A program made the position numbers and the translations under genes. Source: Candidatus Omnitrophota bacterium (GTDB lineage Bacteria > Omnitrophota > Gorgyraeia > Aquiviventales > Aquiviventaceae). Taken from it: a stretch of DNA of 64,000 bases. The stretch lies in contig JAHFGT010000002.1 of assembly GCA_023247275.1 (NCBI GenBank), positions 25,961-89,960 of the forward strand, read 5' to 3'. Below are positions 61,209 through 64,000 of this stretch, in pieces; position 1 is the stretch's first letter, and each line of letters starts with the position of its first letter. Below the pieces are notes generated by a model that ran no database searches, had not been told where the DNA came from, and worked only from the letters and a program-made list of their open reading frames with translations.

Positions 61209-64000
61209 CTACTGCTCATTGGCGGCTGACAGGCCGGCGCCGATGGACCGGTACACTCCGCCCCCATAGTTGCCACCAATCGCGGTGGAGAGCGCCGTGG
61301 ACCAGTGAAGATCATTCGTCAAGACCGTGTTGCTGGCGCCGGACATCAAGACGGTCGTATTCGCAGCGCTGTGGCAGACATCGTACGTCCCGTAGATCCA
61401 CCATCCCCCAGGAAACTGCTGCAGGCCTGCCCCGGCTATCCCAGCGGGCGCAGATGCGCCGACATGAATCGCCTGCGGTAGATACTTAAAGATCCCGGTT
61501 TGAATAGGTCCTTGCCCGATGATCGCCCCGTTGCTCAAGGTCTGCATGGTATAGTGTGCATTGCCAATTGGCGTATACCCCAATTGCGGGTACGTTCCAT
61601 ACGGCCAGATGCCACTGGGTTGCGCTGGAAGATCAGCCTCAACCGTCGGCCGGCTGGGCAACGGCGGTCCGTAGAGTGCAACCGCCAATGCGCTCTCCAG
61701 GGCGATGGACGCGCCGGCCTCAATCGTCACCGCAGCCGCGATATAGGCGGTCCGCGGGCTCATCCCTAGCACGTCGTCGAAGAACTGGTGCCCAACTCGC
61801 CGGGTCAACTGGCGCCCTTCGCCGGTCATCCGCAGCTCATGCGCTCCGATTCCCGCGGCCGCAATGATCGCGGCTCCGACAAAGTCACCAACCGCCACAT
61901 GTGGCAAGGCTGCCATCCCGGCCGAGACACTCGTCGGATTCACACCAATCTTTGTGGCGACCTCGTTGGTCGCCTGCTGCGCATCTGACCCTGTTCCAAG
62001 CGGCACAAACGTCCCGACCGCCCGCTCGGCGACTTCGCGAGGCGAAAACAGCGACTTGAGCCATTTGCGGAACGACCAATGGCCGGTTGGATCGACCCGA
62101 TTGGTCGGGTTGTTGCGCACATAGCTGTACCGGTTGAGACTTTGCGGATCCCCTGGGCCTGGCACAATCGAATCAGGTGAAATGAACCGGCCCAGTGTGG
62201 GGTCGTAGTACCGAGCGCCGTAAAAACACAGCCCGGTCGGATCCAGTTGTTGTCCGGTAAACTTGTGGGCTACGTTGGTGGTTCCGGTTCGGCTGAAGAT
62301 GGCACCGTACGGCTTGTACATCACCCGCTCCACCACCTGACCTGCCGCATCAGTCACCAGGCTGGTGGAGCCTAAATGGTCCGCATGGAAGAACCGCAAT
62401 CCGCTCGGCTCCTTCATCGCCACCCGCTGGTTGCCGACGATGAGATATTTCTTCGCGCCGCCGGGGGGCGGAATCTCATAGAACGAACCGACATACCGGG
62501 TGGTCCCTGCCGGTGTGGTCACGCTCACTCGGCCCCCATCCCCGTCATACCCAAAGCGCGTGCTGGTGCCAGCAGCATACGAGACCAGCCGGTTTTCCGC
62601 GTCATAGGCCAGGGCTGCGACCAGCGCCCCGGTCGCGTGGACCGTTTTCTTGATCAGGTTGCCATTGGAATCGTAGGCAAAGTCAATGCCACCCGACGTC
62701 GCGATGACCGCATGCGGCCGGATGATGGTCCCGTACGTCAGGGTCATCCCTTCCTTGGTCACGAGATTGCCGACCGGGTCATAGCCGTACCACTGTGCAC
62801 CGTACGGGCCATTCGCCGTCACCAACCGATCCAGTGAATCGTAGCCAAATAGCTGTCCATTGGCCGGCACCAGGGTATCGTCGATCCGAGCCACATTCCC
62901 GACCCGATCAAACCGATACGAGAGATCTTGTAGCTTTACCGCCGCGGTGCGGGTCACCAGCCGTGACAACTGCTGGGTCACCGGATCGTAGGTGTAGCTG
63001 GTTGTCACGCCATTGCCTAACGTGGCATTGGTGATCTGCCCGGCCGCGTTGTACGTATTGTCGATCACGATCCGCTGGACTGTTCCTGCGGTCGACTGGA
63101 GATTCAGCGTTTCAAGTCCTCCTTGATCGTTGTAGGCATAGAGCGCTTGCTCGCCGTCCGGATAGGTCAGCGCGGTCATGCGACCGAGCAGGTCGTACGC
63201 GCGTCGAATCGTATACGTGGTCCCGCCGATCGCTTTGCTTTCGGTGATCACGCGACCCAGCCGGTCATACGTAGACGTCGAGGTACTCATGGTGTTGGAG
63301 ATCTTGGTCAACCGTCCCTTGCTGTACGCCACCTGCGGGTCATCATAGGTGTACGTGACGGCCGGCGTTGCGACCGTGCTGCTCCCTACTGGAACGGTAT
63401 AGCGCTTTTGTATCAACCGATTCAGGGCATCATACGTAAAATCGGTCCGGACGCCACGCGCATCGGTCTGAGTCGCCAGATTGCCAGCCGGATCATACGT
63501 ATAGCTCCACAGGCCAAGATCCGGATCGGTGGCTGTCAGTTTCCGACCCAGGCTGTCATAGGTCAACGACGTAACATTGCCGTTGTGATCTTTGACCCAT
63601 ATCAGACGGTTGAGGAGATCATACGTATAGAGTGTCGTATAGATCTGCGTCCCGTTGACCTCTTCCACCTTGGCCAGCCGGCCGGATGAATCCTGTGTCC
63701 GGCGAATCCGATGGCCGTTGGCATCGGTCGTGGTGACTGACCAATCACTGTAGCTGGTTGAGACGACCGCCCCATCAGGCCGGCTAGCGGCCTTCACACG
63801 ACCGACCGCATCATACGTGTACGTGATGGGTGCAGGCAGATTGGCTATCGAGAACACCGCAACGTAGGAGCTGGAGACCGCATCAAGATAGGGCCGCCAC
63901 TGCTTGACCACGAGCCCACGACTGTCACGCTCGAGAGGTCCGCTCACCACCTGCTGGGTCGGATTTTCAGCCGGGCTGCGGGTCTGAATCACCCGCCCAA
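61209..64000 (-). CDS. Rhs/YD-repeat toxin, 5' end off the window; unrecognised C-terminal domain
   Basis: There are many YD repeats (YTYDxxGRL/NRL). The Rhs core end is DPTGLCFYGARYYDPTLGRFISPDS...NRYSYVRNNPTNRVDPTGH. A variable C-terminus of 289 aa follows. The reading frame is open to position 64000. Confidence 0.9.
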   Translation of the reverse strand, partial: GRVIQTRSPAENPTQQVVSGPLERDSRGLVVKQWRPYLDAVSSSYVAVFSIANLPAPITYTYDAVGRVKAASRPDGAVVSTSYSDWSVTTTDANGHRIRRTQDSSGRLAKVEEVNGTQIYTTLYTYDLLNRLIWVKDHNGNVTSLTYDSLGRKLTATDPDLGLWSYTYDPAGNLATQTDARGVRTDFTYDALNRLIQKRYTVPVGSSTVATPAVTYTYDDPQVAYSKGRLTKISNTMSTSTSTYDRLGRVITESKAIGGTTYTIRRAYDLLGRMTALTYPDGEQALYAYNDQGGLETLNLQSTAGTVQRIVIDNTYNAAGQITNATLGNGVTTSYTYDPVTQQLSRLVTRTAAVKLQDLSYRFDRVGNVARIDDTLVPANGQLFGYDSLDRLVTANGPYGAQWYGYDPVGNLVTKEGMTLTYGTIIRPHAVIATSGGIDFAYDSNGNLIKKTVHATGALVAALAYDAENRLVSYAAGTSTRFGYDGDGGRVSVTTPAGTTRYVGSFYEIPPPGGAKKYLIVGNQRVAMKEPSGLRFFHADHLGSTSLVTDAAGQVVERVMYKPYGAIFSRTGTTNVAHKFTGQQLDPTGLCFYGARYYDPTLGRFISPDSIVPGPGDPQSLNRYSYVRNNPTNRVDPTGHWSFRKWLKSLFSPREVAERAVGTFVPLGTGSDAQQATNEVATKIGVNPTSVSAGMAALPHVAVGDFVGAAIIAAAGIGAHELRMTGEGRQLTRRVGHQFFDDVLGMSPRTAYIAAAVTIEAGASIALESALAVALYGPPLPSRPTVEADLPAQPSGIWPYGTYPQLGYTPIGNAHYTMQTLSNGAIIGQGPIQTGIFKYLPQAIHVGASAPAGIAGAGLQQFPGGWWIYGTYDVCHSAANTTVLMSGASNTVLTNDLHWSTALSTAIGGNYGGGVYRSIGAGLSAANEQ

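Follow-up and report, generated by a model that had tools for sequence, protein, structure and literature searches.

Our analyses of a window of 64,000 nucleotides of DNA (the whole stretch examined) from Candidatus Omnitrophota bacterium, contig JAHFGT010000002.1, indicate that the Rhs/YD-repeat protein encoded at its far edge ends in a real conserved domain. Judged against Pfam, NCBIfam, the Protein Data Bank (PDB) and the literature that we searched, this C-terminal tip of 289 amino acids (aa) represents a so far undescribed family of polymorphic-toxin tips with two modules, and its target is most likely the cell envelope, approached from outside the cytoplasm. The explanation that we prefer as a whole, in which we place a confidence slightly above an even balance, is that of an Rhs-borne envelope toxin with two modules, acting as a His–Cys/Ser enzyme and countered in its relatives by a lipoprotein immunity protein.

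The tip closes an open reading frame (ORF) on the minus strand that begins outside the window, past base 64000, and ends with the stop codon at 61209-61211. The ORF passes the window edge and the gene is therefore incomplete in the window, where the ORF list and translation give 927 aa (61209-64000). The full-length protein, retrieved in the exhaustive search described below (P0002), has 1929 aa and is identical to the window over the visible part. Its RHS/YD repeats match PF05593 (E=2e-41, eight stretches) and TIGR01643 (E=4e-28), and the Rhs-associated core (TIGR03696, E=5e-24) occupies residues 559-638 of the visible ORF (62079-62318, minus strand), ending in NRVDPTGH (DPQSLNRYSYVRNNPTNRVDPTGH; NRYSYVRNNPTNRVDPTGH). 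The DPxG[LH]-type motif expected at the end of such cores is present as DPTGH at 62079, a presumed autoproteolytic release site, and the tip (61212-62078, minus strand) begins directly after it with WSFRKW. Translation, which also confirmed the coordinates of the core, agrees with a previous sequence-only reading of this DNA, which had described 289 aa beyond the Rhs core with two long hydrophobic stretches and a terminal part rich in Gly and aromatic residues. All of these features are there, the Kyte-Doolittle maxima over 19 aa being 1.92 at tip residues 61-79, clearly of transmembrane (TM) grade, and 1.57 at residues 117-135, which is borderline. The tip-bearing ORF is uninterrupted in three independent metagenome assemblies (L018-L020), each with the same SRPBCC gene next to it, and L018 shows 99.95% DNA identity to the window over window positions 60001-64000.

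A word-indexed homologue search with the tip gave one relative when started from the single sequence and four when started from a profile, and the rest required an exhaustive search, in which 1.84 billion representatives were compared with a profile built from two sequences (A1). This retrieved 88 representatives at E<=1e-3, 47 at E<=1e-10 and 10 at E<=1e-30, many of them metagenomic fragments. In complete proteins the match lies at the extreme C-terminus, either of RHS/YD proteins of 0.7-2.2 thousand aa or of short proteins composed of a signal peptide, the last part of the Rhs core and the tip. The hits in genomes come from Planctomycetia, Omnitrophica/Omnitrophota (twice) and Acidobacteria, and one more relative was found in an Omnitrophica metagenome-assembled genome (MAG).

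The tip can be divided into a linker and two modules, all on the minus strand. Residues 1-47 (61938-62078; WSFRKWLKSLFSP) form an amphipathic linker, modelled with a predicted local distance difference test (pLDDT) of 48-76 and common only to the closest relatives (P0001, P0003, P0009 and P0019); profile positions 1-137 are likewise matched in the close clade only. The N-module (residues 48-136, 61671-61937), delimited by AlphaFold, conservation and hydropathy, consists of four Ala/Gly-rich hydrophobic helices and contains the motifs TGEGR (61812-61826) and FFDDVLGM (61761-61784), which across the representatives read LDTGEGRQ…EFFDDxLGMxPxxA. The C-module (residues 137-289, 61212-61670), delimited by alignments A2 and A4 and by the models, combines a small β-sheet with helices and carries the family motif YGNYGGG (GNYGGG at 61257-61274). 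About 16 representatives match the N-module only (profile positions ~55-140) and then diverge into unrelated ends (P0019/41/43; P0047/50; P0066; P0070; others); all the remaining ones also carry the C-module (profile positions ~145-291). None of the alternative tips borne by the N-module is recognised by Pfam, which gives only sub-threshold hints, PPPDE (Peptidase_C97) for P0070 and DUF6782 for P0076. The tip of P0066 ends in CLNCTDFVVGALEASG, an NCxxF-type motif like that of LRAT/PPPDE enzymes, and some of these alternative tips may be permuted papain-like hydrolases or acyltransferases.

In an alignment of 47 sequences, whose mean column identity is 25%, His205 (61464-61466) is kept in 47 of 47, and position 235 is Cys in 38 sequences and Ser in nine, the latter in one clade; the window has Cys235-His236 at 61371-61376. 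His236 is conserved in 89% and Asn240 in 83% of the sequences, Gly269 and Gly272 in 100%, and Gly105 and Ala111 are invariant where present; the window protein retains every one of these. The AlphaFold2 model of the whole tip, built from the family alignment, is one confident globule (pLDDT 86.8, predicted template modelling score 0.82), and the C-module modelled alone reaches a pLDDT of 82.3. The N-module helices span residues 48-62, 66-83, 86-103 and 108-136 (pLDDT 92-98). In the C-module, the small sheet lies within 142-210, with His205 in strand 204-210, and is accompanied by helices 235-245, with Cys235 in the first turn, 259-268 and 274-288.

The domain had been called unrecognised on first inspection, and it proved so in every collection that we searched: the tip matched nothing in Pfam, NCBIfam or the PDB sequences, Pfam scans of all 47 aligned relatives and a profile search of the PDB sequences came back empty, and Foldseek found no match in the PDB (best E 3.5 for the whole-tip model and 3.2 for the C-module model) or, with the whole-tip model, among the viral structures of BFVD (best E 1.4), all these values being at noise level. 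The structure search proposed with the sequence-only reading thus gave no known toxin family with a known immunity partner. Two enzyme classes were considered and rejected. An HExxH metallopeptidase is contradicted by the window's AHEL, which is not conserved across the family, and a caspase-like (clan CD) enzyme, considered for its His…Cys order, by a predicted fold with too few strands and no Foldseek match. Papain-like hydrolases gave no Pfam or Foldseek signal; the position of Cys235 at the start of helix 235-245 and of His205 on strand 204-210 fits the placement in papain-like, NlpC-P60 and PPPDE enzymes.

The genes that follow related toxins point to where the tip may act. The survey of such genes, another check suggested with the sequence-only reading, covered the 18 toxin genes with both modules (class A) for which downstream DNA was available, namely the window and 17 relatives. 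Directly downstream of 11 of the 18 (11 of the 17 relatives; L001, L003, L007b, L010-L015, L025 and L026), often overlapping the stop codon, lies a gene for a small protein of 96-171 aa with a lipobox and the motif G[AS]DExW.Y…Y[FY]K. Ten of these 11 proteins are mutually homologous (BLASTP down to 1e-21; for L026, where the ORF had not been called, hidden Markov model (HMM) E=1.3e-10); the L025 protein did not match the family HMM and was counted for its lipobox and similar motifs. They weakly resemble BamE (E=2.6e-4 and 3e-3) and DUF2845, all Pfam matches being below the gathering threshold. Other class-A genes are followed by exported proteins of different kinds: in L005 a membrane protein resembling TonB_C, in L007a a TPR lipoprotein, in L009 a secreted protein of 191 aa and in L017 a lipoprotein of 211 aa. 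A second secreted family of 265-277 aa, internally duplicated (BLASTP 9e-24), also occurs behind class-A toxins, at L002:2983-3816 and at L012:6950-7747, in the latter behind the BamE-like lipoprotein, and may be an accessory or alternative immunity protein. Where a toxin shares just the N-module and has another tip, the next gene encodes a Sel1 lipoprotein in L027, a lipoprotein of 99 aa in L028/L029 and a polytopic membrane protein in L016.

No immunity candidate of cytoplasmic type was seen next to any of the N-module-bearing toxins surveyed. This bears on the idea that the N-module is a translocation domain for entry into the cytoplasm, where the C-module would hit its target. CdiA-CT toxins are modular in this manner, with an entry domain as the shared N-terminal part before variable tips, and the N-module with its different tips resembles them; yet the candidate immunity proteins beside N-module toxins are all lipoproteins, secreted proteins or membrane proteins, which makes cytoplasmic entry highly improbable. 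An immunity protein has to encounter its toxin at the toxin's site of action; since the candidates are lipoproteins and membrane proteins, we favour an extracytoplasmic site.

The closest relatives of the tip are carried by ‘mini-Rhs’ proteins of 417-439 aa that consist of a signal peptide, the last ~100 aa of the Rhs core and the tip (L001:4155-5474, L025:5001-6317, L026:2087-3394 and L027:3001-4269, corresponding to P0001, P0003, P0106 and P0019; also P0004 and P0043). In L001 and L025 the gene order is GltB, a helix-turn-helix regulator, mini-Rhs, lipoprotein and response regulator, with no large Rhs gene nearby; the lipoprotein of L001 lies at 5464-5868. The mini-Rhs proteins have the look of free-standing secreted toxins that lack a cocoon, more than that of orphan cassettes. 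A typical Rhs array is present in an Omnitrophica MAG (L003:132-9129), where a 2191-aa Rhs protein with another tip precedes a lipoprotein of 129 aa, a transposase-like gene of 229 aa that appears to be of the IS200/REP-Y1 type, and an orphan class-A tip of 211 aa with its BamE-like lipoprotein.

In the mechanism that we propose, the tip would be the releasable toxic cargo of a Sec-exported Rhs protein resembling the BC component of toxin complex (Tc) toxins, set free at DPTGH|W by analogy with Rhs/TcC proteins. The N-module, a helical bundle with the TGEGR…FFDDxLGM signature that is reused with unrelated tips, would keep the toxin on the outer side of the cytoplasmic membrane of its target. 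The activity would reside in the C-module, with its invariant His on a β-strand and its Cys (Ser in one clade) at a helix N-terminus. It would be a hydrolase or transferase of the acyl-enzyme type whose envelope substrate is embedded in the membrane or linked to lipid, for example phospholipid, intermediates on lipid carriers or peptidoglycan close by. In the relatives, the small BamE-like lipoprotein encoded directly downstream would neutralise it. We infer the toxicity of the tip; catalysis is suggested because an invariant His and a Cys/Ser alternation are kept at 25% identity, with the candidate nucleophile starting a helix and the His lying on a strand. That the substrate would be a lipid, or linked to one, is suggested because the N-module is hydrophobic and BamE-like immunity is tied to lipid-head-group toxins on the same carriers (PMC12419801). 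Membrane-anchored BamE-like proteins are, according to Burroughs et al. 2025 (PMC12419801), the commonest immunity proteins of periplasm-acting polymorphic toxins that target lipid head groups, and they are also found with SPVB–propeller–RHS scaffolds.

The sequence-only reading had thought a membrane-active toxin plausible. The membrane or periplasm as site of action gains from the lipoprotein genes behind the relatives, but a purely pore-forming mechanism has lost ground. Under that mechanism the tip would be a non-enzymatic, membrane-inserting pore-forming or depolarising toxin whose Ala/Gly-rich helices enter the target's cytoplasmic membrane. Its TM-grade segment and the borderline one, its helices with GxxxG/A-like small residues and the lack of any recognised catalytic motif would suit such a role, as would the polytopic membrane protein next to the alternative-tip relative in L016. 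There is also a precedent among Rhs toxins, Tse5-CT of Pseudomonas aeruginosa (PMC9637101), likewise an Rhs-encapsulated, hydrophobic and motif-less C-terminal toxin that acts at the membrane. Nevertheless, an invariant His and a Cys/Ser position at 25% mean identity would be unusual for a pore-former, most relatives reach the TM threshold only in the segment upstream of TGEGR, and AlphaFold packs the helices and the C-module into one compact globule. Tse5-CT itself differs in several respects: it has 149 aa, is delivered by a type VI secretion system (T6SS) through a PAAR-like domain and VgrG4, and is neutralised by Tsi5, an inner-membrane protein with two TM segments (PMC9637101), whereas the window tip has 289 aa, an α/β C-module and the invariant His plus Cys/Ser, its carrier has a Sec signal peptide and no PAAR, and the immunity candidates of its relatives are lipoproteins instead of integral membrane proteins. 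Searches of PDB chains with phmmer and profiles gave no match of the tip to any chain, Tse5 entries included (8cp6 and 9i9y were in the library; the presence of the deposited Tse5-CT chain is unconfirmed). We therefore consider a pore-former unlikely and favour a membrane-associated His–Cys/Ser enzyme.

Several points weigh against the enzyme with lipoprotein immunity. Similarity to a known hydrolase was not found, structurally or by profile, in Pfam, the PDB or Foldseek searches. His236, beside the putative nucleophile, is replaceable (Q, Y or N in five sequences), and the Cys/Ser exchange at position 235 is also compatible with a purely structural residue. The lipoproteins are candidate immunity proteins by virtue of gene adjacency, and two of the 18 class-A genes, the Acidobacteria homologue in L004 and the window itself, have no recognisable immunity gene downstream. 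In L004, the region downstream of the homologue holds, on the opposite strand (5400-6500, minus strand), an ORF rich in G-x-Y-x-A-x-x-H-T-H repeats (HTHGVGSYMASDHTHGAGSYTAPSHTHSY), with no immunity-like gene visible. Finally, the window tip reads GGNYGGG where 44 of 47 sequences (94%) have Tyr at position 268, being the sole sequence with Gly there (Y268G, 61266-61268); this may be an attenuating change, and the window toxin may accordingly be a weakened one.

Taken further, Y268G could mean that the window tip is decaying or inactive cargo and that its immunity gene was lost since the toxin no longer works. A second departure, Gly at position 76 where 88% of the relatives have Ala, would be in keeping with decay, as would the lack of an immunity homologue in the 64 kb of the window and in an extra 4 kb upstream in L018. 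But the three independent metagenome assemblies all have the 1929-aa ORF unbroken and with practically the same sequence, the window tip keeps His205, Cys235, His236 and Asn240 together with the motifs of the N-module and the Gly motifs, and its model is confident. Decay is, in our judgement, improbable.

The sequence-only reading was right that the gap behind the Rhs gene holds no obvious immunity gene, as the six-frame translation and the lipoprotein HMM confirm. This gap, between the Rhs stop codon and the start of the SRPBCC gene at 61010, measures 198 bp (61011-61208). Its sole ORF, of 45 aa with a GTG start (61014-61151, minus strand), has neither a signal peptide nor similarity to any immunity candidate; tblastn and HMM searches detected no remnant of an immunity gene in the gap, and RNA folding no unusual structure (z=0.13). 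When translated in six frames, neither the window nor L018-L020, including the additional sequence upstream of the Rhs gene in L018, gave a match to the family lipoprotein HMM. The immunity gene may be unlinked and lie elsewhere in the genome; none may be needed, if the cargo is enclosed in its cocoon or the toxin is aimed at unrelated prey; or the cargo may be attenuated through Y268G. Predatory or parasitic nanobacteria are believed to be among the Omnitrophota. Burroughs et al. note that toxins aimed at prey are usually not accompanied by immunity genes (PMC12419801). A bolder version of the envelope-enzyme account, tentative and to our minds rather doubtful, would have the tip found a new fold, that of a membrane-docked His–Cys/Ser enzyme which destroys lipid-linked envelope building blocks from the side of the periplasm, with the N-module as an exchangeable ‘membrane-delivery’ cassette for at least five unrelated tips; in this Omnitrophota lineage the toxin would be deployed, without immunity, against prey and not kin.

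Among described toxins with the same kind of carrier and of candidate immunity, the Lipocone tips Min-Wnt and CapCone-1 (PMC12419801) come close. They too are borne by SPVB–propeller–RHS proteins, have membrane-anchored BamE-like immunity proteins of the class seen beside the relatives of the tip, are predicted to act in the periplasm or membrane, possess a helical, partly hydrophobic core and occur, like the tip family, in the Planctomycetes–Verrucomicrobia–Chlamydiae group and Acidobacteria. However, the Lipocone triad His(H2)/Glu(H3)/Asp(H4) and the motifs DAxRH…HE…MDxxNN were not recognised in the window tip, and no homology is detectable. Membership was rejected with hhalign, in a comparison that covered three of 30 Lipocone families (Min-Wnt, CapCone-1 and SAA): probabilities for the whole tip, the N-module and the C-module were 0.1-0.6% against CapCone-1 and Min-Wnt and 0.14% against SAA, versus 50.6% (E=1.6e-4) for the positive control of CapCone-1 against Min-Wnt. 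Four helices do make up the N-module, in which Glu98, Asp101/102 and Glu128 are conserved, but these helices lack a conserved His, the invariant His205 lying on a strand of the C-module, and Foldseek listed no TelC, SAA or Wnt structure among the matches to the tip models.

Periplasm-acting T6SS effectors such as the Tae amidases and Tle lipases are Cys/Ser–His hydrolases that work outside the cytoplasm and are blocked by a small exported protein. The window tip is like them in its conservation pattern and in the lipoprotein neighbours of its relatives. It differs in that it showed no relationship, by fold or by sequence, with domains of the NlpC/P60, CHAP, α/β-hydrolase or patatin kinds, its His stands only 30 residues before the candidate nucleophile and its carrier is not a T6SS substrate. 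By analogy, the tip would work most like these periplasm-acting hydrolase effectors, with lipoprotein immunity, while being carried like the cargo of Tc ‘BC’ or teneurin-like proteins.

The carrier supports the latter comparison. In P0002, Pfam recognises, after a signal peptide, SpvB (63-214), FG-GAP_3/FG-GAP from 341 and TcdB_toxin_midN (585-721), followed by the RHS shell, the Rhs core and the tip. SpvB, the β-propeller and TcdB_midN are thus N-terminal to the shell as in Tc BC subunits, and the same domains appear in the precomputed Pfam annotation of L018 and L019. Tc-toxin BC cocoons and teneurin-like Rhs proteins (TcdB2-TccC3, YenB/YenC2) likewise combine SpvB, an FG-GAP propeller, TcdB_midN, RHS shell, core and variable cargo, and the PDB entries for TcdB2-TccC3, YenC2 and teneurin-like proteins are related in sequence to the shell of the window protein. 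P0002 shows no PAAR match and has a Sec-type leader instead, and neither VgrG nor Hcp is encoded in the neighbourhood. By its domain order the protein has the layout of a fused TcB–TcC (‘BC’) or teneurin-like protein, not that of a PAAR-bearing T6SS effector. Unlike a Tc BC, it is a single polypeptide with a Sec signal, and no gene for the TcA translocator was found within ~4 kb upstream or 61 kb downstream of the Rhs gene. Its cargo also has no relationship with the TcC hypervariable regions that are known, such as ADP-ribosyltransferases, and the relatives of its tip have immunity-like lipoprotein genes, which indicates antibacterial rather than insecticidal use. The region upstream of the window edge, which had been singled out for inspection, encodes no T6SS/VgrG or TcA components over the ~4 kb available in L018; a PcRGLX-like protein of 800 aa is encoded there together with DUF190, CrcB and Fic. 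On its downstream side the Rhs gene is followed by housekeeping genes.

With this domain, the polymorphic-toxin repertoire gains a well-delimited family of 88 clusters with two modules and a confident model without structural neighbour. We are aware of no cultured member and of no characterised toxin from the phyla in which it occurs. The reusable N-module and the lipoprotein neighbours offer a testable idea of how Sec-exported, cocoon-type Rhs proteins may reach the target envelope without T6SS or TcA, and the link between BamE-like immunity and toxins directed at envelope lipids would be extended to a non-Lipocone domain.

The gene that follows the gap (60384-61010, minus strand) encodes a protein of the SRPBCC type, as Pfam matches to Polyketide_cyc and Polyketide_cyc2 confirm. 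Its translation has 208 aa (P0090 is a start variant of 198 aa) and an N-terminal hydrophobic leader, so that the signal-peptide-bearing neighbour reported by the sequence-only reading is indeed there. The role given to it, that of an atypical cognate immunity protein exported to the periplasm, did not hold up. Its homologues, 42-56% identical, were traced to their genomic contexts, and the order SRPBCC–GSU2086-family–PfkB(HldE)–KdsB–PyrG–KdsA is common to the window, two Omnitrophica MAG contigs (L021 and L024) and one Joint Genome Institute (JGI) contig. PyrG of the window shares 82% identity with its counterparts in two ‘Candidatus Omnitrophica’ MAGs, which places the organism in the Omnitrophota. 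Upstream of the SRPBCC gene, L021, L024 and the JGI contig have methyltransferases and unknowns and no Rhs gene. The same array without an Rhs gene in three contigs implies that SRPBCC is not a dedicated immunity gene and that the Rhs gene sits at a synteny break beside a resident gene. In addition, an SRPBCC gene is the neighbour of none of the 17 related toxin genes, and a promoter-like site (TTGACC-18-TACAAT, 10/12; 61016-61045, minus strand) separates the Rhs stop codon from the SRPBCC start. An immunity role would be in line with the position of the gene, next on the same strand 198 bp downstream, with its leader, with the diversity of immunity types within the toxin family and with its lower conservation between relatives (52-54% identity vs 65-82% for its array neighbours), reminiscent of fast-evolving immunity genes. 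An exported protein could show such conservation too, and the synteny carries more weight. We regard SRPBCC immunity as very improbable: gene order identifies this gene as a resident of a conserved array for 3-deoxy-D-manno-oct-2-ulosonic acid (Kdo) and lipopolysaccharide (LPS) and not part of the toxin system, which corrects a tempting mis-annotation.

Within this array, a perfect sigma-70 consensus (TTGACA-17-TATAAT, 12/12) lies at 60354-60382 on the minus strand, before the start of the GSU2086-family gene (60347), and SRPBCC and the following genes therefore need not share one transcript. The GSU2086-family protein (59409-60347, minus strand, 312 aa; NCBIfam E=8e-127) has a faint deoxyhypusine-synthase-like similarity. 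Its gene is conserved beside hldE/kdsB/pyrG/kdsA in several Omnitrophota contigs and may encode an uncharacterised step linked to Kdo/heptose-LPS synthesis. The CTP synthase ORF (55861-57714, minus strand, 617 aa) has an N-terminal extension of 68 aa that overlaps kdsB; the gene is called with 549 aa in L018, and its true start is probably near 57510.

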